Shown here piece after piece: positions 7,667 through 60,714 of a stretch of DNA of 64,000 nt (position 1 is the stretch's first letter; every line of letters begins with the position of its first letter). The DNA comes from Candidatus Uhrbacteria bacterium (GTDB taxonomy: Bacteria > Patescibacteriota > Patescibacteriia > UBA9934 > UBA10169), in assembly GCA_016187485.1 (NCBI GenBank), contig JACPJO010000005.1, positions 155,519-219,518 on the forward strand, given 5' to 3'. Made by a program: the position numbers and the translations under genes. The notes under the pieces are model-generated. The model made no database searches. It was not told the DNA's origin and saw nothing but the letters and a program-made list of their open reading frames with translations.

Positions 7667-9326
7667 TTATCGTTTGAGCACGGCAAGGTAAGCCGACGAG
7701 GGAATATCCACACTCCCGCGCCCCATCGCCATCATTTTCTTTTTCCCCTTCTTCTGTTTCTCCAAGAGTTTTCGTTTACGCGTCACGTCCCCGCCGTACA
7801 GATACCTTTTCGACAACGGATTTGCCGATGCGATACGCGTCCTTCTCGAAAACAAGAAACGCCAACGCCTCGACCGGCTCCTCGGCCACCAAAATATCCA
7901 CACGCGCAATCTCGGCCTCGCGATATTCAAGCCAGTCATAGTTGAGTGAGGCATAGCCGGATGTGATGCTTTTGAGCGTGTCGTAAAAGTCAATCACGAT
8001 GGACGCAAGCGGCATCTCGTAGTGAATGAGCGCGCGCGTCGCATCAAGATATTCTGTTGTTTTGTACACCCCACGCTTGTCCGTGCAAAGTGCCATCACT
8101 CCACCGATAAACTCTGCTGGCGTCACCACATCCACGCGCACCCACGGCTCCTCCGTTTTCATGATATGTGATTGGTCGGGCATCTCAAGGGGACCATGCA
8201 CGTCTATCACTTCCCCCTTCATGCTAAAAACACGGTAGCTCACCGATGGCACGGTCATGATGACTTCAAGTTGGCACTCGCGGCGCAAACGTTCCTGCAC
8301 AATCTCCATATGTAACATCCCTAAAAATCCACAGCGGTATCCATGTCCCAGCGCCGGCGAATATTCTGGCTCGTATGCAAGCGCGGCGTCCGACAAGGAA
8401 AGCTTCAGCATGGCTTCACGAAGCTCCTCGTATGTGTGCCCTTCGTGCGGAAAAACGCCCGCATACACCATTGGCTTCACCACTTTGTACCCGGGAAGCG
8501 CCGGTGCCGAACCGTGTTCACGCACTATTGTGTCTCCCACACGACACCCCTCAATACTTTTGAGACCCGTGGCAACGTAGCCGATCTCGCCCGCCGCAAG
8601 GGAAGCATTCGGTGCATACGCAGGTGTGAGCGCTCCCGCCTCCATGACCTCAAACGTGACGCCAGATGCCGACATGCGCAAACGCTCGTGCGGGCGCACA
8701 GCACCATCCACGACACGCACGTACGCCACGACACCTTTGTAGTCGTCATACTTGGAATCAAAGATGAGAGCACGAAGTCCTCCTGCTGTTTGGCTTGCGG
8801 GAGGTGGAATGCGCGCAATGACTTCATCGAGAAGTTTCGCCACGCCTTCCCCGGTTTTCCCCGACACCAGCAAAATATCTTCCTCCCTGCAGCCAAGAAG
8901 TTTCACCAACTCCGCGCGGCGGCGAGGCACGTCCGCAGCGGGCAAGTCAATTTTATTGAGAACGGGAACAATGGTGAGATTTTGTTCCATTGCCAAATAG
9001 AGGTTTGCGATGGTTTGCGCTTGCACGCCTTGCGTTGCATCCACCAAGAGCACCGCGCCTTCAACAGCAGCAAGTGAGCGGGACACCTCATACGTAAAGT
9101 CCACGTGGCCAGGCGTATCAATCAAGTTGAGTTCCACGTCCTTGTAGTGCATGCGCACGGGCGTCAATTTGATGGTAATGCCCTTCTCTCGTTCCAAGTC
9201 CATCGAATCCAAAAGTTGCTCCTTCATTTTACGCTTCTCCACCGTGCCGGTAATCTCAAGCATCCGGTCCGACAGCGTGGACTTGCCGTGGTCAATGTGC
9301 GCAATAATGCAAAAGTTGCGAATCAT
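7667..9326 (-). CDS. lepA: elongation factor 4 (LepA), 3' end frameshifted/internally deleted (possible pseudogene or assembly error)
   Basis: N-terminus [12 protein letters not shown] (GTPase G1) and the rest of LepA lie in frame 7776..9326. The conserved C-terminus [22 protein letters not shown] continues in another frame (7667..7810). About 37 aa between ...GKSVVEK and CYGGD are missing. Confidence 0.75.
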
Positions 9327-10468
9327 GTCGAGATTATACCACCTCCTAAAACGGTGCCGTCTTCTGTGTAAAACACGATGGATTGGCCAGGAGTAATGGC
9401 ACGAATAGGATTCTCGAACTGAACGCTACTGGGGTCAGACCCCGTACGGGGTCTGACCCCGGCCCCGCTCACATGACACGGCTCGAGCGGTTGGCGATAC
9501 CTCACTCTCGCGAAGCACGAGAAGGGGGTCAGACCCCGTACGGGGTCTGACCCCCTCGGCGTAAGCCAATTACATTGCCCCGCGGTAAGTTCTCTCGAGT
9601 ATAACTCTGGATCCACCTCACTCCCGACCACAAGCGTATTCGTTACTGTCTCTTTTCGTACAACATACCACGGCGTGCCACCGCCCACGGAGCCGATGCC
9701 TTCGCGCTGACCAATCGTATAAAACGCCAACCCTTCGTGCTCTCCCACCACACGCCCGTCCGTTGACTTGATGAGTCCAGGCGAGAGCTTGATGCGCTCT
9801 TTCAAAAATTCTTTAATATCCACTTCACCTACGAAGCAAATCCCCATGCTATCTTTTTTTTCTGCAACAGATAGACGGTGCTTGCGCGCAATCTCACGCA
9901 CTTCGGATTTCAATAAGTCACCGACGGGAAACATCACACGCGGCAAAACCTCCTTCGGCATCGCCCACAGAAAATAGGTTTGATCTTTACTCTGATCTCT
10001 CGCAGCCTTCAGAAAAGGGGTCTGGCCCCGTACGGGGTCAGACCCCTTTTCTACTCTCGCATAATGCCCCGTCGCCACAAACGCACACCCGAGTCTGTCC
10101 GCCTCACGCACAAACAAATCAAACTTCACAAATTTGTTGCAGAGCACATCTGGGTTAGGTGTCCGTCCTGCTTCATACTCGTTAAACAGGTTCTCGACAA
10201 CCTTCTCGCGATACTCCTTTTCAAAATCGAGCGTGACAAACTCGATCCCAAGTTGTGCCGCCACGCGCATGGCATCACGTCTCTCGCTGCGCCAATCGCA
10301 TTCGACAAACTCTTGTGTACCGTTGCACGTGCGCGTGCTCCCGCTCCAATTTTTCATGAACGCGCCAATCACTTCGTATCCCTGTTCCAACAACAAAACC
10401 GCGGACACAGATGAGTCAACGCCGCCGGACATGCCAAGCAAAACTCTCTGTTTTGGCATAAGGGCCAC
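9323..10468 (-). CDS. mnmA: tRNA-specific 2-thiouridylase MnmA carrying three in-frame palindromic insertions
   Basis: SGGVDSSVSA PP-loop, FMKNW, GHYAR, C-terminal PGQSIVFY. The ORF starts with GTG at 10468; the first ATG is at 10459. Confidence 0.85.
   Translation of the reverse strand: MALMPKQRVLLGMSGGVDSSVSAVLLLEQGYEVIGAFMKNWSGSTRTCNGTQEFVECDWRSERRDAMRVAAQLGIEFVTLDFEKEYREKVVENLFNEYEAGRTPNPDVLCNKFVKFDLFVREADRLGCAFVATGHYARVEKGSDPVRGQTPFLKAARDQSKDQTYFLWAMPKEVLPRVMFPVGDLLKSEVREIARKHRLSVAEKKDSMGICFVGEVDIKEFLKERIKLSPGLIKSTDGRVVGEHEGLAFYTIGQREGIGSVGGGTPWYVVRKETVTNTLVVGSEVDPELYSRELTAGQCNWLTPRGSDPVRGLTPFSCFARVRYRQPLEPCHVSGAGVRPRTGSDPSSVQFENPIRAITPGQSIVFYTEDGTVLGGGIIST
9431..9460. repeat. 30-bp perfect palindrome GGGGTCAGACCCCGTACGGGGTCTGACCCC, in frame inside mnmA (encodes GVRPRTGSDP)
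   Basis: Read directly; reverse complement is identical. Confidence 0.9.
9525..9554. repeat. second copy of the same 30-bp palindrome inside mnmA (encodes GSDPVRGLTP, different frame)
   Basis: Read directly; flanked by an extra G/C pair. Confidence 0.9.
10017..10046. repeat. third copy (one mismatch) of the 30-bp palindrome inside mnmA (encodes GSDPVRGQTP), extended by AAAA/TTTT arms
   Basis: GGGGTCTGGCCCCGTACGGGGTCAGACCCC read directly. Confidence 0.85.
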
Positions 10469-10529
10469 ATCATACCCCTACAAGCTACCGGCTACAAGAC
10501 ACATCCTTCGCTAAATCTAGCTTAATTCC

Positions 10530-10558
10530 TTGACAAAATCGCCAAAATATGATAAATT
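10530..10558 (+). promoter_or_regulatory. sigma70-like promoter: TTGACA, 17-bp spacer, TAAATT, at the left edge of a GC-rich island
   Basis: Hexamers read directly. The track's ORF at 10530 starts on the TTG of the -35 box, so that start is rejected. Confidence 0.45.
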
Positions 10559-10622
10559 TCCCTGTTTCGTCCTTTCCCGATCCTGGCATGGTGCCGGGAT
10601 CACAACTCGTGGAGGCAGAGGT

Positions 10623-10811
10623 ATGCGGAAGCAGGTTTTTCCCAATGGCGATTGCTTTGTCCTCTCGGACACGGCGATCATGCTGGTCGAGTTGAACGAC
10701 CCCGATCCGCCGGAGCCCCTGTGCTACGGCGACCTGGTCGTGTACTCGATCTGCGGCTTCTTGCTGGGCAGCGGCTTCGCGGCCGTGATCTTCGCCCACC
10801 TGGTCGCCTGA
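10623..10811 (+). CDS. small hypothetical protein with a C-terminal transmembrane helix (GC-rich island)
   Basis: Internal ATG preceded by GGAGGCAGAGGT; GC3-rich codons; hydrophobic C-terminus. Confidence 0.4.
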   Translation: MRKQVFPNGDCFVLSDTAIMLVELNDPDPPEPLCYGDLVVYSICGFLLGSGFAAVIFAHLVA

Positions 10812-10863
10812 GCAACACCACTAACCCGGCCGCGTTGGCCGGACATGCGGAGGAATGCGAGAG

Positions 10864-11844
10864 ATGTTGAACGCCAACTTCCCCAACCCCGACATCGGTG
10901 ACGACAACACGATCGAGCGCCGCTCGATCCTCGGGGACACCCGGTTCGGGCTCCGGGCGCGGAACAACGCCGAGCGCGTGCGCCACAACCGGCGCCGGCA
11001 GCGGAGCCGCGGGTGCTACGTCCCGAAGTTCACGCACGGCAAGCGCGACGTGAAAGACTGCCTGGTCGAGGCGCAGAACTTCGCGCCGATCCAGGCCTAC
11101 GACAGCACCGACAACGGCGAGGACGTGGTCATCACCGCGATCAGCAACGGGATCGAGGACATGGACGAGGGCGAGGCCGTGCTCATGGCGTGGGCCAACG
11201 CGTTCGAGGAGGACCTCGACGCCCAGCTCGCCTACTACGACGAGCTGGAGGCCGAGTTCGCCGAGCCCGAGGAGCCCGACTACCGGGCCGAAGGTGCCCT
11301 CTACGAAAACGACCGGTACGAGGAGCTCGAGCTTGCGGAGCCGCCGCGCATCCCGCCCCACCAGAGCTACCCGCCCAAGCGCCACGTGGTGGACCGCCTC
11401 TGGGTCCTCCTCGGGTTCAAGAACCTGGAGGACGCAGAGTTCATGGTGCGCCGTGCCGAGTGGCAGTGCGTGGATGCGAAGAGCCCGGAGGAGCTCGAGC
11501 TGAAGCGCCTGGCGCTTCAGGTGGCCGAGACCACCCGTGACGAGCGGCGGGAGTCCCTCCTCCACCGCTTCGGTCGCACGATCATGGCCCCGATCCGACG
11601 CGAGCACACGCCGTGCCGCCAGAGCCCCTGGAAGGACCGCAAGGCCCCCCGCCAGTGGGCCAGGCACCAGCCGCGGCACCGCTCCACCATCCCGCCCATC
11701 GAGGTGATCAACACCCGCGCGGCGTGGATCGAGGAGCAGGAGGCAGTCGTGGAGATCATCATCCGCGCCATGTTCGTGGACGAGCCGGATGTGCTCCCCC
11801 GGGGCACGCCGATCGAACTCGCCCTCGAACTCGCCGCCGCCTAG
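10864..11844 (+). CDS. hypothetical acidic/Arg-rich protein (GC-rich island)
   Basis: GGAGG 10 nt upstream of the ATG; strong GC3 bias; followed by conserved hairpin GGGGACccaatcGTCCCC. Confidence 0.5.
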   Translation: MLNANFPNPDIGDDNTIERRSILGDTRFGLRARNNAERVRHNRRRQRSRGCYVPKFTHGKRDVKDCLVEAQNFAPIQAYDSTDNGEDVVITAISNGIEDMDEGEAVLMAWANAFEEDLDAQLAYYDELEAEFAEPEEPDYRAEGALYENDRYEELELAEPPRIPPHQSYPPKRHVVDRLWVLLGFKNLEDAEFMVRRAEWQCVDAKSPEELELKRLALQVAETTRDERRESLLHRFGRTIMAPIRREHTPCRQSPWKDRKAPRQWARHQPRHRSTIPPIEVINTRAAWIEEQEAVVEIIIRAMFVDEPDVLPRGTPIELALELAAA

Positions 11845-11866
11845 CGCCGCCGTCCCTTTCAGTTCC

Positions 11867-11899
11867 TTTCTCTCGGGGACCCAATCGTCCCCATTCCCC
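11867..11899. repeat. 34-bp direct repeat TTTCTCTCGGGGACCCAATCGTCCCCATTCCCCC (copy 1), contains a 6-bp-stem hairpin
   Basis: Identical sequence at 12800-12832, each just downstream of a GC-rich gene. Confidence 0.8.
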
Positions 11900-12009
11900 C
11901 CGTCCGGATGATAAAATACATTCGTCCTGACAGGTGGAGTAGTAGGTCCTTCACTTAACACGCGTAACGGCTGGCATCCATAAGCCCAGCCAGGCGCACT
12001 GGATAGATC

Positions 12010-12237
12010 ATGAACGACTGGACTGCCGTGACACTCAGTTTCTTGGCCCTCATCGTCATGTGCCTCGTCGACTACAGCCACGGGCAGGTCTACGGAATCG
12101 AGAACGGTTGCTGCCCCTACCGGCCCGCCCCCGCCTTCGAGTGGGGGTGCACGTCGGTCGAAAAGGACATCTGCACCGACGAAGATCCGCGTGACTACGT
12201 CTACGGCGACGTGATGAGCGACTCTTCCAGCCGCTGA
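12010..12237 (+). CDS. small secreted cysteine-rich protein (signal peptide, 6 Cys)
   Basis: N-terminal hydrophobic segment AVTLSFLALIVMCLV followed by CCPY...GC...C. GC-rich. Confidence 0.45.
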   Translation: MNDWTAVTLSFLALIVMCLVDYSHGQVYGIENGCCPYRPAPAFEWGCTSVEKDICTDEDPRDYVYGDVMSDSSSR

Positions 12238-12299
12238 AGAAGCCCCAACCCCACTTGCGCATCCGAGCCCTACGCAGGCCAGGCGCATGGAGACGTTCG

Positions 12300-12776
12300 A
12301 TGTCCGATCCTAAGATCCCCGCCATCCTCCCCAACTACAAGGAAATGGAGACCACAGCGGCACGGTCCGTCGTGATCGACATCCTCCTCTTCTGCGGCTT
12401 CCTCCTGGCCCAGAACATCACCGCAGCGCTCTTCACGGGGCTCGTCATCGCCGGCAAGCCGGTCTGGAGCATCGTCACCGTCGGCGTGTTATGGGTGGTG
12501 ACCGGTGGCTGCATGGTGCGTGTGGCCAGGAGCCTCCGCGACAGTCACGCGAACTTGGTACTCGTCCGCGACCACAAGCGCGCCATCCACGCCGTGCTTG
12601 CTCATCCCAATGTAGCCAAAGAAGCATGGTTCTTCTTCAACTACTGCCAGAGGATGCACCCAGACAACATGTGGCACGCCCTTCTCATGTTCCACGCTCA
12701 CCTGACGAAGACGACGGCCACGCCGGTCAACGGCCACGTGGGTGATGGCTTCGACGACCCGATCGAGGACGACTAG
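12300..12776 (+). CDS. hypothetical membrane protein (3 predicted TM helices)
   Basis: GGAGA RBS 6 nt upstream of the ATG; hydrophobic helices; GC-rich. Confidence 0.5.
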   Translation: MSDPKIPAILPNYKEMETTAARSVVIDILLFCGFLLAQNITAALFTGLVIAGKPVWSIVTVGVLWVVTGGCMVRVARSLRDSHANLVLVRDHKRAIHAVLAHPNVAKEAWFFFNYCQRMHPDNMWHALLMFHAHLTKTTATPVNGHVGDGFDDPIEDD

Positions 12777-12799
12777 CCATTACCCGCCAGTACTGCTCT

Positions 12800-12832
12800 T
12801 TTCTCTCGGGGACCCAATCGTCCCCATTCCCC
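12800..12832. repeat. 34-bp direct repeat (copy 2) with GGGGACccaatcGTCCCC hairpin
   Basis: Identical to 11867-11899. Confidence 0.8.
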
Positions 12833-12934
12833 CTTTTCTAGCAATATTATAGATATGATGCCTCGTTATCTGTCCGACCGGACACTTAACACAGCCGACT
12901 ATTGCTTGCAGAGGGGGAATCCTGCCAATCGGTA

Positions 12935-12977
12935 AACTACCAAAAATCAGGAGCTTAGCTCCTGATTTTTGGTAGTT
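12935..12977. repeat. 39-43-bp perfect palindrome ACTACCAAAAATCAGGAGCTtAGCTCCTGATTTTTGGTAGT
   Basis: Read directly. The core AGGAGCT(A/T)AGCTCCT recurs at 41883-41897. Confidence 0.8.
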
Positions 12978-13025
12978 GCAGATTTTTGCGTTCCCGCGTA
13001 GGGTGTTCAGACACCGGGAGGACAC

Positions 13026-15514: not shown

Positions 15515-17254
15515 TTAGCCGCGCGAGGTTCCTGATTCAATAAACTTATAGTAACACTCTTTGCAGTATACCGCCCGTTTTGGATACACCTTATTCTTCC
15601 CAACGGAAATGCTCTTTTGGCACTCCGCGCACAATGCCGGCTCCACGATCGCCATGTTGAGCTCGGCGTAGAGGTCCATGAGACGCCGCGTGGCATGCGA
15701 CCTGGGCGGCGCAATCTTGAGCGCGCGGTAAATCGCAAGCTCGGGCACGAGGTATGAAAACCGCCGGTCGGAGACATCATCGCGATACACCGTCTTCGTC
15801 ATGGCGTCGTCTGCGCGATCAGGAATCTCGCTCGTTGCATGGATCATGCTCGCATCCATAGCGGCACCCTCCGCTCCCTCGCTTGTCACATCAACATCAG
15901 GCATACCGAGTTTGATCAGCTCCTCCTTCGGCGTGTCATAGATGTAGCGTGCGCCGCATCCGCTCCAGTGCTGGGTCGAAAACTTCGCCGATGGTAAGTC
16001 ACCATACTCTCCCCTCTCAAGCATCGCGCACTTGAGTGCATCCACGGTCTTCCAATATTCCTCCTCCGTGTATTGCTTGTTCAAGATGCAAAACTTTTTG
16101 TGCTTGAGCCCAATGCATCCGAAACAGTTTTCGCAATCCATGCACGCATGACAATATTCGCACTCAAGACAGCGCGTGAGAAGCGAGAGCGAGTAGCGAG
16201 TCTTCGAGCTGTACCCATTCCCGATACCATAGTAGCAATCCGACGCACCATTTACCGCCGCACACATGTAGCAATCGCTCGACGGCACACCATAGGCGAT
16301 ATTGACCCATCCAAGATCGGCACACCCTTTGCAGACATAAAATGCATCGCGGATGCGCGTTGAATCGTAAATGTATTCCCCCGTCACGTCTTCTGCATGC
16401 ACGTTCCAGTTTTCCGGCCAGGCGGCGTGCGCAATAAGATCTTTGAAGCGCTGCTCGTATTCCGCGCGTACCGCATACGAAGAAAGGTCAACCTCTGAAC
16501 GTCGTTTCTTCCACTCCGCTTCAGTAAGCTGTTCATTCCACCAAAGATATTTCGCATTGCGTTTATTCGTCGCACCGAAGCAAAACTCGCAGTTTCGACA
16601 ATCGAAGAGAAACGCACCTGAGAGACAATCGAGGCATTCGCGCAGATACAAACAGTCCGCGATGTTTTGAGAATGGACGACATTGTAGGAGCGCGAGATG
16701 TGGGTGGAGAGCGCGACCTCGGCAGAGTCTTCCATGTCCGATACGTTCATCGAAAAAACAGAATTCTTTGATTTGCACGCCAAGACGAAGTAGCTGTTCT
16801 GATCCCCACGCGAGATGAACGCGAGAGAATTTTCCGGCTGGACGTAATTAAAGTTCGCCGAACGTGGTACGGCAAGAGACAGCTTGTAGAGTTGATCGAC
16901 AAACGAGCGAGAGAGATCAAGCTCGCGTCCGTGCGACGTGAAGTCTTGCTTGAACCACTCGTCATCCGGGATCACACGGATGCCACTTGCGGGGTGAACG
17001 ACGGAGATAAGCGGTTTGCCGCCATTCGGTTGTGCGTTGTACCACATGTCAAACATGACGATGTGGGCATTCATGAGCTTCATCCGCGTCATGGGCGCAT
17101 ATTTCGACGGCGGGACGTTGTATTTGCGATACTGCGCAATCTCCGTGTCGTCCATCATCCACTTCGTCCCAAGCACAGCACACGTCCGCTCCCCGGGTTT
17201 GGTAGCATCGAGGATGGCTTTGACTTTTGCATCGTAGTTGGAGGTTTTGCTCAT
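15515..17254 (-). CDS. cysteine-rich paralog family protein P6 (about 27 Cys, no signal peptide, C-terminal CxxC...CxxC zinc-ribbon-like motif)
   Basis: N-terminus MSKTSNYDAKVKAILDATKPGERTCA, FLFDCRNCEFCFGATNKR, CENCFGCIGLKHKKFCILNKQY. Shares these blocks with five neighbours. Confidence 0.7.
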   Translation of the reverse strand: MSKTSNYDAKVKAILDATKPGERTCAVLGTKWMMDDTEIAQYRKYNVPPSKYAPMTRMKLMNAHIVMFDMWYNAQPNGGKPLISVVHPASGIRVIPDDEWFKQDFTSHGRELDLSRSFVDQLYKLSLAVPRSANFNYVQPENSLAFISRGDQNSYFVLACKSKNSVFSMNVSDMEDSAEVALSTHISRSYNVVHSQNIADCLYLRECLDCLSGAFLFDCRNCEFCFGATNKRNAKYLWWNEQLTEAEWKKRRSEVDLSSYAVRAEYEQRFKDLIAHAAWPENWNVHAEDVTGEYIYDSTRIRDAFYVCKGCADLGWVNIAYGVPSSDCYMCAAVNGASDCYYGIGNGYSSKTRYSLSLLTRCLECEYCHACMDCENCFGCIGLKHKKFCILNKQYTEEEYWKTVDALKCAMLERGEYGDLPSAKFSTQHWSGCGARYIYDTPKEELIKLGMPDVDVTSEGAEGAAMDASMIHATSEIPDRADDAMTKTVYRDDVSDRRFSYLVPELAIYRALKIAPPRSHATRRLMDLYAELNMAIVEPALCAECQKSISVGKNKVYPKRAVYCKECYYKFIESGTSRG

Positions 17255-17269
17255 ACAAACTATTCGCTT

Positions 17270-17281
17270 ATTCGCACGAAT
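17270..17281. promoter_or_regulatory. ATTCGCACGAAT (imperfect copy of the ATTCGCGCGAAT motif), 15 bp upstream of the P6 start
   Basis: Part of the conserved TATTCGCTTATTCGC(A/G)CGAATTAG block. Confidence 0.45.
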
Positions 17282-17290
17282 TAGCCGCGC

Positions 17291-19033
17291 TTACCCGTTC
17301 TTTTCAATAAACCCATGATAACAATTCATGCAGTATACTCTCCGCTCGGGAAACGTGAAATTTTTATACGTGGTCGTTTTGGCGCTGCAGGAGGCACAGA
17401 CAACTTCGATCGCAAAGGGGGAGTTCGCGTGGCGGAGCCAGTGTGTGAGGCGCGTAATAAAATGCCGCCGTGGGAATGGCCAGCGCTTTTCTTTGTAGAT
17501 CGCAAGCTCTTTTGGCACGATGCTGAAATCGCGATCGAGCTCCTCATCATGGATCGGCGTGTTCACATGCTCGGACGAGACCTCATCAATGCAATCCGGG
17601 ATATCCTCGATGCGAAGCCGTACCACATGCGCCTCCTCCCGTTTCGGCGCAAGCACCAATCCTTGCTTTGGATCCACACGAATCGCGCCGAACCTCTCGA
17701 GGTCTCGCTCGCGGTAATCAAAGTACACGGCACCCGTCGAGTGTTCAAAACCCGAGAGCGAAAACTTTCCGGGAAAAAACTCGCCATAACTTCCGTCATC
17801 GAGCATCGCGCACTTGAGCTCATCTACACGTCTCCAGTATTCCTCTTTTGGATACGGCTTGTTGAAGATGTGAAACTCCTTTTTGTGAAGTCCAGCACAC
17901 CCGAAGCAACGCTGGCAATCATCGCAGACGGCACAATACTCAAGTTCTACTCCATTGCTGCATCCCATCGTAAACTTGTTATCAGCGCCGTTCGTGTCCC
18001 CCGTGCTCATGTAGGTCCGTGTCGCCCAGCCAAATCCACTACAATACGCGCAATCGTTCGCCTCAATGCCGAATCGGCAGTGGTAACAGCCCGTGCACTT
18101 GTCGAGCCAATAACTATATCCATCGCAATTAACACAAAAGTTCAGGTGCTCACCGCGACTGTTTTCGTTTCGGATCCCGAAGGAGGCTGGCCAGATACTC
18201 TGTTCGTGCCAGAGTCTGTAGAACTTCTCGAGCCACGCATCTGCGGTCGATCGACAGCCGAGATCTACTTCCGCGCGCCGCTTTTTCCATTCTGATTCCG
18301 AGAGTTGTTCGTTGAACCACAGATATTTTTTCTGCCGTTTGTTCGTAGCCCCGAAGCACAGCTCGCAATCGCGGCAATCAAAAAGGAAGGAACTTTTGAG
18401 ACACCGATAACAGCTGAAGAGATATTCCGAATCGGCAATATTATGCGAATCGCTTATGGAAAACGAGCGGGCAATGTGTGTTCCATTGACCACGTCCACA
18501 CAGTCCTCCGCCTGAAATGCTGCGTAGGTGTAGAGAGAGCGAAGAGCCTGCGAGGCGCACGACATATAACTCTCCACGCTTTTCCACGAACCGACCGCGA
18601 CCGACGCAGCATCCACATCACGATTGCGTTTGGCACGCATGGGAACCATCGTCACGAGATCCCAGATTTGATCGAACACCGGACGGGAGGGATCAATGTC
18701 TTGATACGTGGAGGAAAAATCATGTTTGTACCAATCAATGTCCTCAACGACTTTGAACGGAAGATCGGGATGAATGGCAGAGACGATCGGCTTGCTCGAG
18801 AACACATCACGGTTCCAAAAAATGGCCAACCCGGTGTTGTAGCCATTCAGCATATTCATGCGCGTACCAGGTTTCACTTTCGACGGCGGGACACGAAACT
18901 TTTTACAGATAGCGATTTCGCTTTCATCCAACACCCACGTCTCGCCCGTCAATGCGCAAACCCGCTCCTCCCCTGCCTTCAAGCCGGCGAGGATTGCATC
19001 GAGCTTGGTGTCAAAGTTGGGTGTGTTGGACAT
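17291..19033 (-). CDS. cysteine-rich paralog family protein P5
   Basis: Start trimmed to MSNTPNFDTKLDAILAG by alignment to the paralogs. It abuts the P4 stop with a gap of about 1 bp. CDDCQRCFGCAGL motif. Confidence 0.65.
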   Translation of the reverse strand: MSNTPNFDTKLDAILAGLKAGEERVCALTGETWVLDESEIAICKKFRVPPSKVKPGTRMNMLNGYNTGLAIFWNRDVFSSKPIVSAIHPDLPFKVVEDIDWYKHDFSSTYQDIDPSRPVFDQIWDLVTMVPMRAKRNRDVDAASVAVGSWKSVESYMSCASQALRSLYTYAAFQAEDCVDVVNGTHIARSFSISDSHNIADSEYLFSCYRCLKSSFLFDCRDCELCFGATNKRQKKYLWFNEQLSESEWKKRRAEVDLGCRSTADAWLEKFYRLWHEQSIWPASFGIRNENSRGEHLNFCVNCDGYSYWLDKCTGCYHCRFGIEANDCAYCSGFGWATRTYMSTGDTNGADNKFTMGCSNGVELEYCAVCDDCQRCFGCAGLHKKEFHIFNKPYPKEEYWRRVDELKCAMLDDGSYGEFFPGKFSLSGFEHSTGAVYFDYRERDLERFGAIRVDPKQGLVLAPKREEAHVVRLRIEDIPDCIDEVSSEHVNTPIHDEELDRDFSIVPKELAIYKEKRWPFPRRHFITRLTHWLRHANSPFAIEVVCASCSAKTTTYKNFTFPERRVYCMNCYHGFIEKNG

Positions 19034-19034
19034 A

Positions 19035-20750
19035 TTATCCTCTCTCCCCAAGATACTCCCAATAGCACTTTTGACATAGAATGCGACGCATAGGAAATGT
19101 CGAGTTTCGGTACGTCGTAACTTCCGCGTGGCACTTCTCACACATCGCCTGCTCTTCACGCGGGCCGTTCGAGAACCGAAAACGGTTTTTCATGGAGAGG
19201 AATGGGTGCTCACTCGGCACGGCAACATTTTGCTTGCGGCAAAATGCCAGCTCGGCTTGTGTTACAACAAACGGACGGTGGAGAATGGGATCGAGAACAG
19301 ATTTGTTGATGAAGTTTTCCCATGCGGGATCATCGGCACGATCCGGAAGGTCGTCCGGTGAGAGAAGATCGGGCGTCGTCGATCCTATTGATGTTTCATA
19401 CATGGGGGCGCCGTGAGCACGAAGCTCGTCCGGTAAGTATTCCGCATACAAGTCACCCATCGAGAACTGGAAACCTGGCTCGGAAAATGCAGCAGGGAAA
19501 AATTCGCCGTACTCTCCACGATCAAGCATTGCACATTTCAGTTCATCGAGCTTCTGCCAATAATTCGCCTCGTCATATTGCTGATTCAGAATGCAAAACT
19601 TCTTGTGCCGTAAACCAACGCAGCCGAAACAATGCTCGCAATCATAACAGTTGAGAGAGTACTCCATGCCGATCGAACGCCACGTGCGGAAACAGAAACG
19701 GTTTTGGCTTCCCGAGAGCATGTCGCAACACTCATACATCTGTCCGCCCTTGCCACCCCAACCGGTAAACGCCGACTCTTGAAGTTCGAGCGTCGCATAG
19801 CAACGAAAGCAATCCGTTGAGTCGTAGTTGCGATAAGCAAACTTACAACGTGTTGAGTCGGAAATATGCTCCCCCGTGCACCCCTCCGAGCCAACATGGA
19901 CATACGCCGGCCAGACCGACTGACGGATCATCTCGAGAAACTGTTCATGCTGTTTTTGATACACGGCGCGCGATGAGAGATCAACTTCTTGTCGCCGCTT
20001 TTCCCATTCCTCTTTGGAAAGTTGCTCGTTCCACCACAAATACTTTTTATGCAACTGATTGCTCGCACCAAAACAGAATTCGCAATCAACGCAATCATAG
20101 AGGAATGCACTTGATGAACAGCCGTTGCAAGAAAAACAATCAACACAGCTAAAGCACTTGCTCGAATAGCTCGTCTGAAAACAAAATCGGCATCGACTGT
20201 TGTCGATCACGTCCATGCAATCTTCGTTCTCAAGACCGAGGAACGCATGAAGCACACGCCGGTTATACATAAGCGCGAAGGCCAAGTAGGCATCCTCACA
20301 CTTGATAAGGTCGACGCCGGTACAGCGAAGGTTCGAACCATCATCGCGGAGCGCCCCGACAGGAATACGGTGAGCCAGAGGAAGAAGCTGGTCGAAAAAT
20401 GATCGTTGAGAATCAAGTAACTGCCCCGGTTCTAGAAACTCTTTCGAGAACCATTCTTTATCGTGAATGATGTTAAACGGCGAGTCAGGGTGCACAAAAC
20501 TCCAGATTGACTCTCCCGTCTCGGCATGTGGTTTTTTCCAAAGCGCTAATCCCGACACAAACCCCATTAAGTGCCGCATTCTCGTATACGGCGCCCGCTT
20601 ACTCGGCGGGACGTTGAATTTTCTGTACCAGCCAATCTCTTCATCCGTCATGTTCCACTTTTCTCCCGTCAACGCACAAACTCTCTCGCCCGGCTGCGTG
20701 ACGTCGAGAATGGATTTTACTCTCAGGTCAAAATATTGAGTCTTGGACAT
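19035..20750 (-). CDS. cysteine-rich paralog family protein P4
   Basis: MSKTQYFDLRVKSILDVTQPGERVCALTGEKWNMTDEEIGWYRKFNVPPS, CEHCFGCVGLRHKKFCILNQQY. Confidence 0.7.
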   Translation of the reverse strand: MSKTQYFDLRVKSILDVTQPGERVCALTGEKWNMTDEEIGWYRKFNVPPSKRAPYTRMRHLMGFVSGLALWKKPHAETGESIWSFVHPDSPFNIIHDKEWFSKEFLEPGQLLDSQRSFFDQLLPLAHRIPVGALRDDGSNLRCTGVDLIKCEDAYLAFALMYNRRVLHAFLGLENEDCMDVIDNSRCRFCFQTSYSSKCFSCVDCFSCNGCSSSAFLYDCVDCEFCFGASNQLHKKYLWWNEQLSKEEWEKRRQEVDLSSRAVYQKQHEQFLEMIRQSVWPAYVHVGSEGCTGEHISDSTRCKFAYRNYDSTDCFRCYATLELQESAFTGWGGKGGQMYECCDMLSGSQNRFCFRTWRSIGMEYSLNCYDCEHCFGCVGLRHKKFCILNQQYDEANYWQKLDELKCAMLDRGEYGEFFPAAFSEPGFQFSMGDLYAEYLPDELRAHGAPMYETSIGSTTPDLLSPDDLPDRADDPAWENFINKSVLDPILHRPFVVTQAELAFCRKQNVAVPSEHPFLSMKNRFRFSNGPREEQAMCEKCHAEVTTYRNSTFPMRRILCQKCYWEYLGERG

Positions 20751-20761
20751 ACTATTCGCTT

Positions 20762-20773
20762 ATTCGCGCGAAT
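20762..20773. promoter_or_regulatory. ATTCGCGCGAAT perfect 12-bp palindrome, 11 bp upstream of the P4 start
   Basis: Read directly. Confidence 0.5.
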
Positions 20774-20785
20774 TAGAGATCATTG

Positions 20786-22516
20786 CTAGCCACGTTCTTC
20801 CATGTACCGAAGATAGCATGGTCTGCATAACACGCGCCGACGGCTGGAAAAAAGTGCGTTTCGGCTTGTCGTAACTGAGGTGCAGCAGATAGCGCATGTC
20901 GTTTCTTCAGGGATAGGCACATTCGAGTGGCGTACAAGGTGGAGAAGGCGAGTGAGAAAGTGCTTGTCGGGAATTGGTAATCGGTGTTTTTGATAAAAGG
21001 CAAGTTCCGCTGGTGTGATCGTGTATAAACGATTAAGTGACTCATCCAGAATTGGTTTCCCAACATGTTGGGAAACATCAATATCCAGAAGTCGGTCAGG
21101 TAGTTCAGATGCTTTGAGCAGCCCTTCGGACTCATTGATATTCCCTTTCGTAGGATCGAACGTCGGCGCGCCGAATTTCTTGAGTTCATCGTCACTATAC
21201 CCAAAGTAAAACTCCCCCATCGAAAACTGAAATCCTGTCTGCGAAAGACTCGCAGGAAAAAACATGCCGTACTCGCCACGGTCGAGCATCGCACACTTGA
21301 TCTCGTCCACCCGCTGCCAATATTCCTCTTCGCCGTACGGCTTGTTGAAAATGTGAAACTTCTTTTTTTTGAGACCGACGCAGCCAAAACAGTGCTCGCA
21401 GTCGTAGCAGTCCATGCAATATTCTAAGTCTTGGCACCGCCATGAGCGTGAGCAGAATTTGAGGTTGTGATAATACGCGATATCCGCCGAGCAGTACGCC
21501 GCGTCTCCCCACCCCAACCACACGACACTCATGCTGTCACGATCATCCAGACTCATCCAGCATTGAAAGAGGTCCGTGCTCCCTTCGACCCAGTAACTCT
21601 CGCGACATCTTGTGGCGCGCACCAAATACTCTCCCGTGCTCTCCACGTCTGTCGCAAAGTTGAAATGGTCGCGGAAATACCCTTCCCCACGAATCATCTC
21701 AAGGTATCTTTCCGAGCACTCGTTCCATGTACGCCGTGATCGGAGGTCGACCATCTCAAGACGTTTACGATACTCTCCCTCCGACAGCTGTTCGTTCCAG
21801 AATATAAATTGTTTATCCTTCTTATTCGTTGCACCGAAGCAGTCTTGGCAGCGGCTACAATCAAAGAGAAACGCGCTGTTGATACAATCACCGCATTGGA
21901 AACAATAGGTACAGTGATGCATGTTCTCGGCCGCGTTGATGTGATAGCTCTCATTTACCCGAAGGGTGTTCGTGATACAGGCCGAATCACTTCCATGAAA
22001 ACTCACCGACGCATACAAAACACGTTGTAAATCCGCTCCGCCAAACAAAAGATAGGTGTCTTGGCATTTGATCATGTCCACGCCAACGCTGTTGGTACTT
22101 GACCCCTCATCGCGCAGAGCACCCACAGGAATCGAATATGCAAGTTGTTGAAACTGAGCAAAGAATGGTTCTCCAGGATCGAGCTCTCTTGTTGTTTGTG
22201 CGAATTCACGGTTATGCCAGTCGCGGTCGGGAATCACTTGATATGGACTGTCTGGGTGCACAAACGTAAGAAGCGGCTCCTTAGTCTCCGCATGCGGCTT
22301 TTTCCAAATGGCTATCCCAACAGGAAAGCCCAGGAGCTGTTTCAATCGCGGAATCGGCGCGCAGGAATGCGGCGGCACGTTGAACTTTTTGTACCATCCA
22401 ATCTCCTCCTCGGTCATGTTCCACTTCTCCCCCGTCAACGCACAAACCCTCTCGCCAGGTTTTATCGCGTCGAGGATGGATTTTACTTTGGCATCGTAGT
22501 TAGGTGTCCGATTCAT
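20786..22516 (-). CDS. cysteine-rich paralog family protein P3
   Basis: MNRTPNYDAKVKSILDAIKPGERVCALTGEKWNMTEEEIGWYKKFNVPP, CEHCFGCVGLKKKKFHIFNKPY. Confidence 0.7.
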   Translation of the reverse strand: MNRTPNYDAKVKSILDAIKPGERVCALTGEKWNMTEEEIGWYKKFNVPPHSCAPIPRLKQLLGFPVGIAIWKKPHAETKEPLLTFVHPDSPYQVIPDRDWHNREFAQTTRELDPGEPFFAQFQQLAYSIPVGALRDEGSSTNSVGVDMIKCQDTYLLFGGADLQRVLYASVSFHGSDSACITNTLRVNESYHINAAENMHHCTYCFQCGDCINSAFLFDCSRCQDCFGATNKKDKQFIFWNEQLSEGEYRKRLEMVDLRSRRTWNECSERYLEMIRGEGYFRDHFNFATDVESTGEYLVRATRCRESYWVEGSTDLFQCWMSLDDRDSMSVVWLGWGDAAYCSADIAYYHNLKFCSRSWRCQDLEYCMDCYDCEHCFGCVGLKKKKFHIFNKPYGEEEYWQRVDEIKCAMLDRGEYGMFFPASLSQTGFQFSMGEFYFGYSDDELKKFGAPTFDPTKGNINESEGLLKASELPDRLLDIDVSQHVGKPILDESLNRLYTITPAELAFYQKHRLPIPDKHFLTRLLHLVRHSNVPIPEETTCAICCTSVTTSRNALFSSRRRVLCRPCYLRYMEERG

Positions 22517-22524
22517 ATTCGCCT

Positions 22525-22536
22525 ATTCGCGCGAAT
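22525..22536. promoter_or_regulatory. ATTCGCGCGAAT palindrome, 8 bp upstream of the P3 start
   Basis: Read directly. Confidence 0.5.
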
Positions 22537-22796
22537 TAGAGAAGAGAAATAATCTGCTTTGCGCCGGACGGCTGGTCTTTGGAAAGACGATAGAACATCT
22601 CCAGGCTCCGCTGATCACGATCAACGATATCAGCTGCAAAAAGAATCCCCAAATGCTTCGAGGTTGCTTTAAGTGATAGCTTGATCTTATTGGCAATCTC
22701 CCACACCGGTGCTTCCTCTTTTTCTCTTAGGAACTCAACGATCGCAAGCCGCCTGCGGTTCGCCAACGCCTTCAATGTACGCTCTAATTGCCTCAT
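22536..22796 (-). CDS. small ArsR/SmtB-type winged-helix transcriptional regulator (second regulator of the array)
   Basis: 86 aa. NRRRLAIVEFLRE...VWEIANKIKLSLKATSKHLGILFAADIV has the HTH_20-like layout. Preceded by an extended palindrome centred on ATTCGCGCGAAT. Confidence 0.55.
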   Translation of the reverse strand: MRQLERTLKALANRRRLAIVEFLREKEEAPVWEIANKIKLSLKATSKHLGILFAADIVDRDQRSLEMFYRLSKDQPSGAKQIISLL

Positions 22797-22802
22797 ACAA
22801 AA

Positions 22803-22834
22803 CTATTCTATCATTCGCGCGAATTAGAGAATAG
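22803..22834. promoter_or_regulatory. extended palindrome CTATTCTATCATTCGCGCGAATTAGAGAATAG upstream of the small ArsR-like gene
   Basis: Core ATTCGCGCGAAT at 22813-22824 with imperfect outer arms. Confidence 0.5.
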
Positions 22835-22849
22835 ATTTATCCACTATGT

Positions 22850-23485
22850 TTAAGTCGATAGACGTAGGAATGAATTATGTGTCTTTATGACTTCCACGTG
22901 TCCGTCTTGCACAAGAACCGCCTCATCATCCGTTAAGCGGGTGCTCATGACTCCATGCTGTCGCTCATATTCAGCGATCTGTTCTTCTTCAGCCGGTTCA
23001 TAGTGCGGAGTAATGGTGAGATCGACAAGCCCCATACCGCGCATATCCTTGAGATCAACAATGTTTTTATCTCCCCCGACACCAAGTCCTGAATGTCCAA
23101 TATCCTTCCCCGCCACTATCGAGCCGGCGCTTACTCCGATGTAGATCCCCCCTTTTTCTAAAAATGACTTTACTGCTACATCGAAGCCGCTCTCGCGAAT
23201 ATATTTCATGAGGTAATAGGTGTTGCCGCCTTGGACATAGATAATGCGACTGCGCTCAAGTGCTCTTACGGTTTCATCCTGCGTCTTACCAGCCAGATCA
23301 TACTCCTCAACAATCCAACCCATCTGCTCCATTACGACACGGTCTCCGTCCACATAGTGCCAATCCGATTCCGGAACGGACGCCGTGATGATATGCAACA
23401 CATGGGGCGCTCCCTCAAGAGGAGCGACAAACGATTCGATCTCGTGTTTCATTCTCATCCCCGCTGATGTAAGAAAAAGTTTCAT
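22850..23485 (-). CDS. S51-family peptidase (peptidase E / alpha-aspartyl dipeptidase-like)
   Basis: MKLFLTSAG N-terminus, YVQGGNTYYL and YIGVSAGSIVAG (Ser nucleophile in GxSAG) as in PepE/cyanophycinase. Confidence 0.7.
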   Translation of the reverse strand: MKLFLTSAGMRMKHEIESFVAPLEGAPHVLHIITASVPESDWHYVDGDRVVMEQMGWIVEEYDLAGKTQDETVRALERSRIIYVQGGNTYYLMKYIRESGFDVAVKSFLEKGGIYIGVSAGSIVAGKDIGHSGLGVGGDKNIVDLKDMRGMGLVDLTITPHYEPAEEEQIAEYERQHGVMSTRLTDDEAVLVQDGHVEVIKTHNSFLRLST

Positions 23486-23493
23486 GTTCGCCT

Positions 23494-23505
23494 ATTCGCG
23501 CGAAT
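23494..23505. promoter_or_regulatory. ATTCGCGCGAAT palindrome, 8 bp upstream of the S51 peptidase start
   Basis: Read directly. Confidence 0.5.
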
Positions 23506-23517
23506 TAGAGATTGCCC

Positions 23518-25251: not shown

Positions 25252-25263
25252 AAACTATTCTCT

Positions 25264-25277
25264 AATTCGTACGAATT
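25264..25277. promoter_or_regulatory. AATTCGTACGAATT perfect 14-bp palindrome (variant of the motif), 12 bp upstream of the P2 start
   Basis: Read directly; overlaps the P1 stop codon. Confidence 0.45.
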
Positions 25278-27018: not shown

Positions 27019-27079
27019 AACGCCCACAGTCTATCTCATTTCCCCCAAAAACTAAAAACCCTGCGCCCCGCCGATCTCC

Positions 27080-30699: not shown

Positions 30700-30700
30700 A

Positions 30701-44161: not shown

Positions 44162-44187
44162 TCTCTCTAAGAGATCTCTTAGAGAGA
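44162..44187. repeat. REP-like perfect palindrome TCTCTAAGAGATCTCTTAGAGA (family A)
   Basis: Read directly. A related half-site CCTCACTTAGAGAGAA lies at about 44249-44266. Confidence 0.75.
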
Positions 44188-46455: not shown

Positions 46456-46469
46456 TCACTAAGTGAGGA
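46443..46469. repeat. REP-like element TCTCTCTAAGTGATCACTAAGTGAGGA (family A) overlapping the glyA stop
   Basis: Read directly. Followed by GATAACTGGGGTTGACAAGAA, a 50-bp block nearly identical to 52688-52737. Confidence 0.7.
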
Positions 46470-46596: not shown

Positions 46597-47250
46597 ATGC
46601 GGCTAGAAGAGTTTACAAATGGGGAGTTTTACCATATTTATAATCGTGGCGTAGACCGGCAGACAATGTTCCGAGAGAGAGAGGACTATCTCGTCTTCCT
46701 CGGATACCTTTATCAGTTTAATAGTTCCCAGAGCATTAAAACTTCTCGACACTCTCGCACTACACTTGTGTCTATTATCAGCTACTGCCTCATTCCCAAC
46801 CATTTTCATCTGGCAATGCGTCAGGAACAGGACGGCGGAATCTCCAAGTATCTCCACAAAATCGGTATGCGCTATGCAAAGTACTTTAATGCAAAATATG
46901 GGAGAAAAGGCCGATTCTTTGAAAACGCCTTCCAGGCCAAGCACATCTCATCAGATGCATACCTAGAGCATATACCACGATACATTCACTTAAATGCCCT
47001 GGATCTCACTGCCCACGATTGGCGTAATGGGAGTGTAAGAAATTGGAACGATGCTCTTGCCCACCTAGAACAATACCCATGGTCGAGTCACCACGCATAC
47101 AGCACAAGGTCACAAGCCATTCCAATTATTGAGATGCGGATTGTAAAGGAAATGTTTCCTACTCCAAAGGAATATATTTCATTTCTTAAACAGTGGTCTC
47201 AAGCCGAAATCTCCACGTTGTCTCTTAGTGATCTCTTAGTGACAACTTAG
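46597..47250 (+). mobile_element. IS200-like / REP-associated tyrosine transposase (RAYT, HuH Y1 transposase) gene
   Basis: YHIYNRGVDRQTMF and IPNHFHLAM (HuH) motifs; about 217 aa. Flanked on both sides by family-A REP-like palindromes. Confidence 0.65.
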
Positions 47251-54482: not shown

Positions 54483-55580
54483 TTAAGCACGAAGCGCCTC
54501 CATAAGGCGCAAGTAAAAACGAAGATTATGAACCGTCGCCAGCCGATAGGCCAGCATCTCGCCCACGGAGAAAAGGTGTCGGAGGTACGCACGCGACGTT
54601 GTCATACACGTGGGACAATCACAGAGAGGATCAACAGGGGAGTCGTCGCGTGTATACTGTTCGTTCGTGATATGCAGACGCTCATAGAAATCTGTCTTAT
54701 CCTCACGCCATTGAATCGTTGATGGGTGTCCCCGCCAGACAAACAACGTTCCGTGGCGCGCATTGCGCGTGGGAAGCACGCAGTCAAACAGATCCACTCC
54801 CTGGTGCACATAATACACGATTTCTTCCGGCATGCCGCCGCCCATAAAGTAACGTGGCCTATCGTTCGGCAAAAGCGGAGTCGCCCCACGCACAATCCGG
54901 TACGCGTCTTCGCGCGCTTCCCCTACCGAAAGTCCGCCGATGGCGTATCCATCAAAACCGATATCCACAAGGGCTCTTGCTGATTGCTCCCGAAGGTCCT
55001 CGTGTGTGCCACCCTGGACAATACCAAAAAGCTTGTCGCTTGTACTATGCGGCTTGCAGGAAGAAAAATAATCCTTACAGCGGGTGGCCCAGCGGAGAGA
55101 ACGCTCCATCGCCTCCTCCGCGCGTTCACGCGGCGAACCGCCAGCAGCAACATCATCAAATTGCATTAAAACATCCGCGCCAATGGCCATTTGCATCTCC
55201 ATCGAACGCTCCGGGGTAAGAAACAAATGAGATCCGTCGATGTGCGACTGGAACTCGACACCGTCTTCTGTTGTTTTGTTAAGTCGAGAGAGGCTAAACA
55301 CCTGATACCCACCACTGTCGGTAAGAAGTGGGCCCGCCCAGCCCATAAGACCGTGAAGTCCACCAAGATCCTTGAGCACATCCATTCCCGGACGCAAAAG
55401 CAGATGATACGTGTTAGTCAATATCATACTAGCGCCAAGCGCCTTCACGTCACCTGGGGAAAGTGTTTTAACCGCGCCTGTCGTAGCAATAGGCATGAAA
55501 CACGGCGTGGGAACAGTCCCATGTCCCGTGAGAAGAGTGCCCCACCGGCGTGCCTTATCCGTTTTGTGCAGCGTAAACAT
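54483..55580 (-). CDS. tgt: queuine tRNA-ribosyltransferase
   Basis: HGTVPTPCFMPIATTGAVK; zinc site CDCPTC...H near the C-terminus. Confidence 0.85.
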   Translation of the reverse strand: MFTLHKTDKARRWGTLLTGHGTVPTPCFMPIATTGAVKTLSPGDVKALGASMILTNTYHLLLRPGMDVLKDLGGLHGLMGWAGPLLTDSGGYQVFSLSRLNKTTEDGVEFQSHIDGSHLFLTPERSMEMQMAIGADVLMQFDDVAAGGSPRERAEEAMERSLRWATRCKDYFSSCKPHSTSDKLFGIVQGGTHEDLREQSARALVDIGFDGYAIGGLSVGEAREDAYRIVRGATPLLPNDRPRYFMGGGMPEEIVYYVHQGVDLFDCVLPTRNARHGTLFVWRGHPSTIQWREDKTDFYERLHITNEQYTRDDSPVDPLCDCPTCMTTSRAYLRHLFSVGEMLAYRLATVHNLRFYLRLMEALRA

Positions 55581-60036: not shown

Positions 60037-60714
60037 TTATTCGTCGAAAGAACCTCCCGGAATATCGAATGTGAGTGCCATGCGGCCGACCCACTCTTCC
60101 ATTTCCTTAAGGTACTCTAACGGGTCTGGAGCTCTTTCTTTTAGATACTGCTCGTCTAAAATAGGGACTCGCTCCAACTGTCCACGAAATGCATGATAAC
60201 TAGACCAGGAATACACGTCCAGGAATGTTTTGGCTTTTGGCCATTCCTTAGAAACCCCCTCCCTCCATAATATTCCGCTTAAATCGAGGGGGTTTAAGTG
60301 AATATAATTTGTGAGATGGAACCATTGAGATTCCCTGCAGATATGGACACACCTGTAGGCAGACTCAAAGAGTGTGCCTCTACGTTCATGGAGAGTATTA
60401 AAGTATTTTGCATATGCCATCTGGAATCGTTGAAGGAACCTCTGAATCCCATTTTCCTTTACCTGCTTCAATTTCATGTGAAAATGATTCGGCATAATAA
60501 CGTAAGAGCAGATTGCAACAAGCCGCTTCTCTTTTAGAACAACACTCGGTGTTGTTCTAAGTATATCCCTGGAAAGCCGATCTTCTTGATTACAAAAATG
60601 AAGCAGCAAAAGAAACCTTTCAAAATCCCCGTCATTATGAAAGAGGGTTTGTCGATCTACTCCTCTATTAAAGACGTGGTAATACTCTCCGATGGCTAAT
60701 TCAGTGTTCCTCAT
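60037..60714 (-). mobile_element. second IS200-like/RAYT (HuH Y1) transposase gene, diverged paralog
   Basis: YHVFNRGVDRQTLF and MPNHFHMKL (HuH) motifs; 225 aa. Surrounded by family-B REP palindromes. Confidence 0.65.
60538..60558. repeat. family-B REP palindrome GAACAACACTCGGTGTTGTTC located inside the RAYT2 coding region
   Basis: Read directly. Confidence 0.75.

Follow-up and report, generated by a model that had tools for sequence, protein, structure and literature searches.

We describe a 30-nt palindrome that occurs three times inside mnmA, the gene of the tRNA 2-thiouridine(34) synthase, in a 64,000-nt stretch of the genome of a Candidatus Uhrbacteria bacterium (GenBank assembly GCA_016187485.1, contig JACPJO010000005.1, positions 155,519 to 219,518; hereafter the window), a member of the candidate phyla radiation (CPR, Patescibacteria). 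The three palindromes are probably non-autonomous hairpin doublets of the kind formed by repetitive extragenic palindromic sequences (REPs) and by REP doublets forming hairpins (REPINs). They would have been moved or re-copied by a Y1 transposase resembling the REP-associated tyrosine transposases (RAYTs), and kept in frame in permissive loops of the enzyme.

Structure of the palindromic elements

The first two copies (positions 9431-9460 and 9525-9554 of the window) are exact, perfectly palindromic 30-mers with the sequence GGGGTCAGACCCCGTACGGGGTCTGACCCC, as had been reported in the initial annotation of this stretch. No match of this kind was found in 100 dinucleotide shuffles, which rules out a chance or low-complexity match. 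The third copy (10017-10046, GGGGTCTGGCCCCGTACGGGGTCAGACCCC) had been labelled a one-mismatch copy of the same sequence, a label that has to be corrected, as it differs from this 30-mer at three positions. Two of the differences are the central A and T exchanged in both arms, an exchange that yields another perfect palindrome, GGGGTCTGACCCCGTACGGGGTCAGACCCC, whereas the remaining one is a true stem mismatch at position 9. Copy 3 is a one-mismatch copy of this second, 'TA' isoform and not of the 'AT' isoform represented by copies 1 and 2.

The arm of the palindrome, GGGGTCWGACCCC, is a 13-nt module, GGGGTC-W-GACCCC, that is itself self-complementary around W, so that the 30-mer consists of two small hairpin modules in inverted orientation, linked by the tetranucleotide GTAC, itself a palindrome. 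The symmetry extends beyond the 30-mer in copy 2 (34 nt, 9523-9556) and in copy 3 (42 nt, 10011-10052, AGAAAA...TTTTCT). Copies 1 and 2 are separated by 64 bp, all three copies span 616 bp, and no further full or half site with up to two mismatches is present in the window.

At the RNA level the palindromes are predicted to form very stable hairpins of -32 to -36 kcal/mol with z-scores of -5 to -7 (copy 1, -31.7 kcal/mol, z = -5.1; copy 2, -35.9, z = -7.1; copy 3, -32.8, z = -6.8). T-rich tails border copy 3 on either side, with UUUUCU following it; it looks terminator-like on both strands, and the scan scores it as such on the plus strand, antisense to mnmA. A known structured RNA or tRNA-like element is ruled out, as Rfam and tRNA searches of the window gave no match. 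Such stability could also point to cis-acting structures selected for mnmA expression, namely an attenuator or terminator, a ribosome pause, an mRNA stabiliser, or sites for a dimeric protein recognising GGGGTCWGACCCC; the terminator-like score of copy 3 and its A/T exchange, which keeps the pairing perfect, would fit this alternative. However, the terminator scan reports a match to a consensus only, and the comparative data considered below argue further against it.

Host gene and insertion sites

The host open reading frame (ORF; 9323..10468, minus strand, 381 aa) had been recognised from its sequence as a tRNA 2-thiouridylase, and this assignment is confirmed. Pfam detects the tRNA_Me_trans HUP domain, the PRC-barrel and the C-terminal barrel (E = 5e-74; PF03054 with 249 bits, PF20259 and PF20258), and the ORF is 100% identical to P0001, a 378-aa MnmA of Candidatus Uhrbacteria in the NCBI database that is encoded on a 303-kb contig. 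It aligns with the MnmA of S. pneumoniae (2HMA) at E = 2e-89. The SGGVDSS PP-loop (residue 11 of P0001) and the cysteine motifs CNK (107) and GICF (206) are intact, and these catalytic motifs fall in invariant columns of a 40-sequence alignment.

All three palindromes are translated from the minus strand, in two different reading frames and with the peptides originally described: copy 1 in phase 0 as GVRPRTGSDP (P0001 residues 334-343), copy 2 in phase 2 as GSDPVRGLTP (residues 303-312), and copy 3 in phase 2 as GSDPVRGQTP (residues 139-148). The earlier observation that two of the three frames are free of stops holds for each isoform, a TGA being present in exactly one frame.

The protein was compared with its 120 best homologues, which are all of the CPR/Uhrbacteria type and 54-65% identical to it, apart from P0001, the query's own database entry. 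Between the conserved anchors of the three sites the commonest loop lengths are 14, 15 and 23 aa (in 55, 62 and 73 of the 120 sequences), versus 23, 22 and 29 aa in the window. None of the 120 listed orthologues has a homologous peptide at the insert positions, except for P0061, where a related element is read in another frame. In P0002, the closest relative at 65% identity, site 2 is of insert-free length and site 3 holds an insert of unrelated sequence. Judged from this alignment, the segments are insertions and not native sequence, in agreement with the frame-preserving insertions proposed in the initial annotation.

It is extremely improbable that the segments are a native, ancestral loop of MnmA or an artefact of assembly. 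Loop length is indeed variable in all MnmA proteins, and the loops of the S. pneumoniae enzyme are somewhat longer than the commonest Uhrbacteria form. However, ancestry at the protein level cannot explain the same 30-mer in three loops and two reading frames, and native loops are ruled out by the orthologue alignment. An assembly artefact is ruled out by Logan contig L204, which derives from a separate sequencing run (SRR12113431), is 99.95-100% identical to the window, and reproduces copy 1 together with 28 nt of copy 2, where it ends. A second contig, L205, overlaps the opposite end of the window; L204 and L205 together extend the window by 15.4 kb, and these extensions contain no half-site.

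An AlphaFold2 model of MnmA based on the 40-sequence alignment (mean pLDDT 88.7, pTM 0.88) is similar to the structures 2HMA, 2DER, 2DET and 2DEU, with Foldseek TM-scores of 0.82-0.90. Each palindrome-encoded peptide is placed by the model wholly within a loop between beta-strands. The peptide of copy 1 lies in the C-terminal barrel, between strands E326-331 and E344-353, that of copy 2 between E287-298 and E313-318, and that of copy 3 at the tip of the beta-hairpin E133-137/E149-152 in the catalytic domain. The 10-residue blocks holding residues 139-148, 303-312 and 334-343 have mean pLDDT values of 73, 53 and 58; no block of the model has lower values than two of these, and the third also ranks near the bottom. 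The MnmA fold is predicted to be intact around the inserts, and the insertion sites to be permissive loops, in line, at the level of a model, with the surface loops considered in the initial annotation. Three properties would explain why the element is kept in mnmA: its 30 nt amount to whole codons, translation is open in two frames out of three, and the sites are exposed inter-strand turns that tolerate residues rich in Gly and Pro.

Occurrence of the module in other genomes

When one genome per species was scanned for pairs of GGGGTC-W-GACCCC modules 0-12 nt apart, such pairs turned up at no fewer than 120 loci in many phyla, compared to ~0.007 expected by chance according to a rough hand calculation. 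The groups represented among the matches listed are Betaproteobacteria, Gammaproteobacteria, Lachnospiraceae, Actinomycetota, Acidobacteriota, Planctomycetota, Omnitrophota and, within CPR, WWE3. These matches comprise AT, TA, AA and TT pairs, arrays, direct pairs and many different spacers, and include 13 occurrences of the exact 30-mer with the GTAC loop, in both isoforms. A viral vector was considered and set aside, as the exact 30-mer was found in a single viral contig of IMG/VR (L209, 3400-3429). We found no paper that mentions the sequence of the 13-mer.

Extragenic position was judged from the translations around real gene starts, the test for stop-free frames being uninformative in high-GC genomes because of their long spurious ORFs. 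In Duganella and Rugamonas several 30-mers are found a short way upstream of real gene starts, and a module pair of WWE3 lies 11 nt past a stop codon. By its position, the module behaves in these genomes as an extragenic REP-like hairpin.

At two loci the module adjoins a RAYT-like gene. In Halomonas (L067, 3761-4531) module pairs are present on both sides of a 220-aa gene, the product of which matches Pfam Y1_Tnp with 35 bits and has the REP-associated tyrosine transposase as its best NCBIfam match, which at 63.7 bits stays under the 80-bit cut-off. A metagenome-assembled genome (MAG) of Desulfobulbales (L066, 1-700) encodes a 52%-identical homologue of this protein, with a module pair 68 nt upstream of its start and a GTAG 5 nt upstream of the pair; no such GTAG is present at the mnmA copies.

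Loop insertions in MnmA and TGT of Uhrbacteria

Of the 120 MnmA homologues, 70 are longer by at least six residues at one or several of the three loops hit in the window; 23 proteins have such additions at two loops or more and four at all three, and the inserted sequences are mostly unrelated to one another. A metagenome scan for further mnmA loci of Uhrbacteria listed mostly distant MnmA proteins (40-48% identity) and provided three usable relatives. At the six loci read as DNA, the larger inserts are for the most part strong hairpins, whereas several shorter ones fold only weakly. Among the former are a 105-nt insert in L206 (-50 kcal/mol), the hairpin CCCCTCTCCCTGAGGGAGAGGGG in L207, and the hairpin CCTCCCCTTGG[A/C]A[A/G]GGGGAGG in L122 and L208. 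None of the inserts of these six loci recurs in the flanks, which cover up to 10 kb. A comparison of perfect-palindrome density between mnmA and its flanks in nine loci (3 inside vs 24 outside) used a criterion too strict to be informative. At site 3 of P0008, P0012, P0039 and P0073 the insert EPANLRTCEP appears, as read from the peptide, to consist of ~3.5 tandem copies of the octamer GAACCTGC translated through all three frames, so that not all loop inserts would be palindromes.

An element related to that of the window is located in P0061 (L121). At the same mnmA loop as copy 2 (site 2) this gene contains a 99-bp in-frame element with perfect 21-bp terminal inverted repeats, GGGGTCAGACCCCGCTCTGGC...GCCAGAGCGGGGTCTGACCCC, which start with the same 13-mer. 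Since it is read in the other frame (GVRP...GSDP), it represents an independent event by a related element. Related inserts within one and the same protein were detected in 4 of the 23 MnmA proteins with inserts at several loops (P0082, P0001, P0041 and P0026, the last at the threshold of relatedness and confirmed at the DNA level), compared to ~0.3 pairs expected by chance, while the other 19 carry unrelated inserts. The pattern of the window, the same element repeated in the same gene, thus recurs, in a minority of cases. At the DNA level it is illustrated by the mnmA genes of L122 (10155-10194 and 10329-10368) and L123 (3702-3773 and 4326-4363). In each of them a genome-specific element occurs twice, at two of the three loops, and is absent from the rest of these 13-15 kb loci.

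As a control we analysed TGT, another tRNA enzyme encoded in the window. Internal inserts of at least 5 aa are present in 50 of 120 TGT homologues (P0121-P0240), and in 47 of the 120 inserts of 5-61 aa occur at a single loop, after core alignment column 176. The window's own TGT (54483..55580, minus strand) has no insert. The peptide families LPLSKGELEGV and ...KQS..EIAS..PRN are found in both MnmA and TGT inserts, in different genomes, which argues for dispersed families and for a few permissive loops as sinks. Collectively, these sequence comparisons suggest that specific loops of MnmA and TGT are recurrent sinks for repeat DNA across Uhrbacteria.

The same comparisons bear on the proposal that the hairpins are selected for a role in mnmA expression. 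Although palindromes in the mnmA loops of other Uhrbacteria would be in line with it, 58% of the orthologues have unrelated inserts, some of them non-palindromic, and 42% have no insert, so that no structure is conserved. Furthermore, TGT shows the same pattern at one loop and is insert-free in the window itself, and the module is extragenic in other genomes. We consider such a cis-acting role improbable.

A broader generalization can be formulated from the share of loop inserts (58% of the 120 proteins at the three MnmA loops, 39% at the one TGT loop). In-frame capture of hairpins resembling REPs or transposable elements of the miniature inverted-repeat type (MITEs) at a few 'hot' loops, driven by RAYT-like transposases resident in genomes of very small size, might be a lineage-wide mode of protein evolution in CPR/Uhrbacteria, and the multi-copy pattern in one gene might then reflect targeted or strictly local insertion and not passive filtering. 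We put this forward tentatively, as a possibility that we regard as rather doubtful at present.

RAYT-like genes in the window and the origin of the three copies

Using the Halomonas protein as a query, tblastn identified two genes for RAYT-like Y1 (HUH) tyrosine transposases in the window (E about 1e-11). Gene 1 (46597..47250, plus strand) scores 30.6 bits with Pfam Y1_Tnp, above the 23-bit cut-off, and 31.9 bits with NCBIfam REP_Tyr_transpos, below the cut-off of 80; gene 2 (60037..60714, minus strand) scores 22.7 bits, just below the Pfam cut-off, and 38.9 bits, likewise below that of NCBIfam. These two families are the sole matches of both genes, and the HUH motif and the C-terminal Tyr region are kept in both.

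Each gene is accompanied by palindromes of its own. Gene 1 is bracketed by 26-nt palindromes of the TCTCTCTAAGTGATCACTAAGAGAGA family (46443-46478, 46567-46602 and 47219-47254), further copies of which are located at 44162-44197, 52674-52709 and 52762-52797. Around gene 2 there are ACACTCGGTGT hairpins at 60006-60033, about 60722-60742 and 60854-60878, the last of these, upstream of the gene, having CTAC...GTAG tags as in canonical GTAG REPs, and another hairpin of this family lies inside the gene (60534-60560). Other copies of both families cluster within a few kb. This genome therefore has the enzyme class along with REPtron-like units, none of them visibly cognate to the mnmA palindrome. 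No RAYT gene flanked by the mnmA unit was found in ~79 kb of this genome, and none is located directly beside mnmA, where the adjoining high-GC region has no Pfam match. Gene 1 can be regarded as a candidate for the class of trans-acting enzyme only; a link of gene 2 to the mnmA palindromes is putative.

We propose that the unit entering mnmA would have been the inverted doublet of 13-nt GGGGTC-W-GACCCC modules joined by GTAC, and that an IS200/IS605-type Y1 (RAYT-like) transposase would have mobilised or locally re-copied it as single-stranded hairpin DNA. The elements would most likely be neutral or slightly deleterious passengers, and their clustering in one gene could be explained either by local re-insertion or by a compact genome offering very little permissive target space. 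What we infer here are the RAYT-type mover, the functional neutrality and the route by which the three copies originated.

The view of the palindrome as a mobile element, advanced in the initial annotation, is supported indirectly, in that the module is extragenic elsewhere, flanks RAYT-like genes in two other phyla and forms the terminal repeats of the P0061 element. A number of observations weigh against it. Outside mnmA no copy or half-site is present in ~78 kb (63 kb of the window plus the 15.4 kb of extensions), so that dispersal within the genome is unproven, which is the chief weakness of reading the palindrome as a dispersed selfish element, and three copies in one 1.1-kb gene are far from the uniform expectation. 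None of the copies has a target-site duplication, the flanks being ACT and GGC, AAG and CTC, and AAA and TTT, with flank matches that are inverted and not direct. The net loop gains are +9, +7 and +6 aa rather than +10, implying that native loop codons were lost at each site or that the loops were shorter when hit. With regard to the enzyme, the association of the module with RAYT-like genes comes from two loci (L067 and L066), and both RAYT-like genes of the window are flanked by palindromes other than that of mnmA and score below the NCBIfam cut-off. Finally, the centre of the mnmA unit is the shared GTAC and not the GTAG or CGTC tag of intragenic REPs.

Several of these observations would also fit a single founding insertion from which the other two copies arose without a transposase, through gene conversion at ectopic sites or through template switching between hairpin-prone sites close to each other. 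Besides the confinement of all copies to 616 bp, the identity of copies 1 and 2 only 64 bp apart, and the missing target-site duplications, this scenario is favoured by the symmetry that reaches into the flanks of copies 2 and 3, by the related within-gene inserts in four independent lineages, and by the L122 and L123 elements, which lack copies elsewhere in their loci. However, copy 3 belongs to the other isoform (TA), a form not obtained by merely duplicating copy 1 or copy 2; the copies are in different codon phases; the flanks offer no guiding homology apart from a weak TCTCG shared 19 nt upstream; and 19 of the 23 proteins with inserts at several loops carry unrelated ones. We consider conversion unlikely, and the movement or re-copying of REP/REPIN-type doublets by a RAYT-like enzyme is the explanation that we retain.

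Comparison with known intragenic repeats

The closest known system is that of the intragenic REP singles and dimers described by Di Nocera et al. (2013, PMC3733652). These GTAG- or CGTC-tagged repeats occur inside genes as singles and dimers, and some ORFs are hit twice; different REPs occupy the same recB site in two Xanthomonas species, and a REP dimer is inserted in the tRNA-modification gene queA of Opitutus terrae. The same authors link REPs to RAYT and TIRYT tyrosine transposases and report that the repeats flanking TIRYT genes share the motif GGGGWSAS; the fit of the A-arm GGGGTCAG to this motif may be taken as a lead. Similarly to intragenic REPs, the mnmA copies are short (20-40 bp class), GC-rich hairpins arranged as inverted dimers and kept in frame in a housekeeping gene. 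Apart from the tag, they differ in that the doublet encodes 10 aa versus 20-30 aa, that one gene has three copies with none detected outside it in ~78 kb, and that the host belongs to CPR. Typical REPs also differ from these three intragenic copies in being mostly extragenic and reaching high copy numbers.

With REPINs and REPtrons the mnmA element shares the inverted doublet of hairpin units that forms a longer hairpin, and the presence of its module next to RAYT-like genes in Halomonas and Desulfobulbales. In contrast to REPINs, in which the spacer is longer, the units in mnmA abut via a 4-nt palindromic spacer, and the copies are intragenic. The anatomy of the 99-bp element of P0061, non-autonomous and with terminal inverted repeats, is MITE-like, whereas the mnmA copies have essentially no sequence between the arms and, unlike MITEs, no target-site duplication.

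The initial annotation had compared the palindromes to Rickettsia palindromic elements (RPEs). As described by Ogata et al. (2000, 2002) and relayed in PMC10969869 and PMC3733652, RPEs are palindromic, inserted in frame in unrelated essential genes, translated, and predicted at fold-tolerant sites. Their length is given as about 100-150 bp (PMC10969869); they encode a conserved peptide family of roughly 35-50 aa and are dispersed in Rickettsia in tens of copies per genome, intergenic as well as coding. The functional analogy holds, since the mnmA palindromes are in-frame coding palindromes that are translated and tolerated in loops, here in a single host gene. Membership in the RPE family does not: by these descriptions the mnmA unit is much shorter (30 nt encoding 10 aa, at most 42 nt) and confined to one gene in ~78 kb, and its translation in two frames means that, unlike an RPE, it has no conserved peptide. 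Our literature search found no paper linking REP/RAYT or coding palindromes with CPR.

Genomic neighbourhood of mnmA

The region directly upstream of mnmA (10500-13000) has a GC content of 62% and contains long overlapping ORFs on both strands, without a Pfam match. Within it are 37-nt direct repeats with 97% identity (11864-11900 and 12797-12833), as well as a perfect palindrome of 43 nt (12935-12977) with a terminator-like score. At 15515-27027, and also at 28843-32446, at least six paralogous genes of ~575-625 aa stand in a tandem array; the single member tested (15515..17254) has no Pfam match, and a conserved motif of 31 nt, AAACTATTCGCTTATTCGCGCGAATTAG..., is repeated at intervals along the array. 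In other Uhrbacteria loci (L207, 4346-7863; L208, 1-8595) genes of the same size (~578 aa) form arrays next to bacA and mnmA.

The lepA gene (ORF 7776..9326, minus strand) lacks in the window 110 bp of conserved coding sequence, between positions 7806 and 7807, that is present in L204 (1747-1856). The gap shifts the frame and results in an ORF of 516 aa, versus 589 aa in L204; LepA has 589-600 aa in the four loci where it was called. The gap can be attributed either to an assembly error of the MAG or to a strain-level pseudogene.

Conclusions

In the first descriptions, coding palindromes were held to be peculiar to Rickettsia; catalogues of intragenic REPs followed later, for a few free-living bacteria. 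The mnmA locus adds an example from CPR, with three tolerated insertions in one core tRNA-modification enzyme; the phenomenon is known, and the lineage is new. It has implications for the practice of annotating and assembling genomes, as a k-mer assembly was interrupted precisely at the repeat. In addition, the wide phylogenetic spread of GGGGTC-W-GACCCC and its adjacency to RAYT-like genes could serve the study of REP families across phyla.

More generally, the finding bears on how streamlined genomes with little intergenic space house selfish repeats, and on the diversification of the surface loops of conserved enzymes. The single locus alone would not surprise a specialist in bacterial repeats; the comparative pattern of hot loops is the more interesting lead. 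If in-frame capture at such loops is indeed lineage-wide, it would amount to a counterpart of the RPE phenomenon in bacteria other than Rickettsia, larger in scale and showing site preference.

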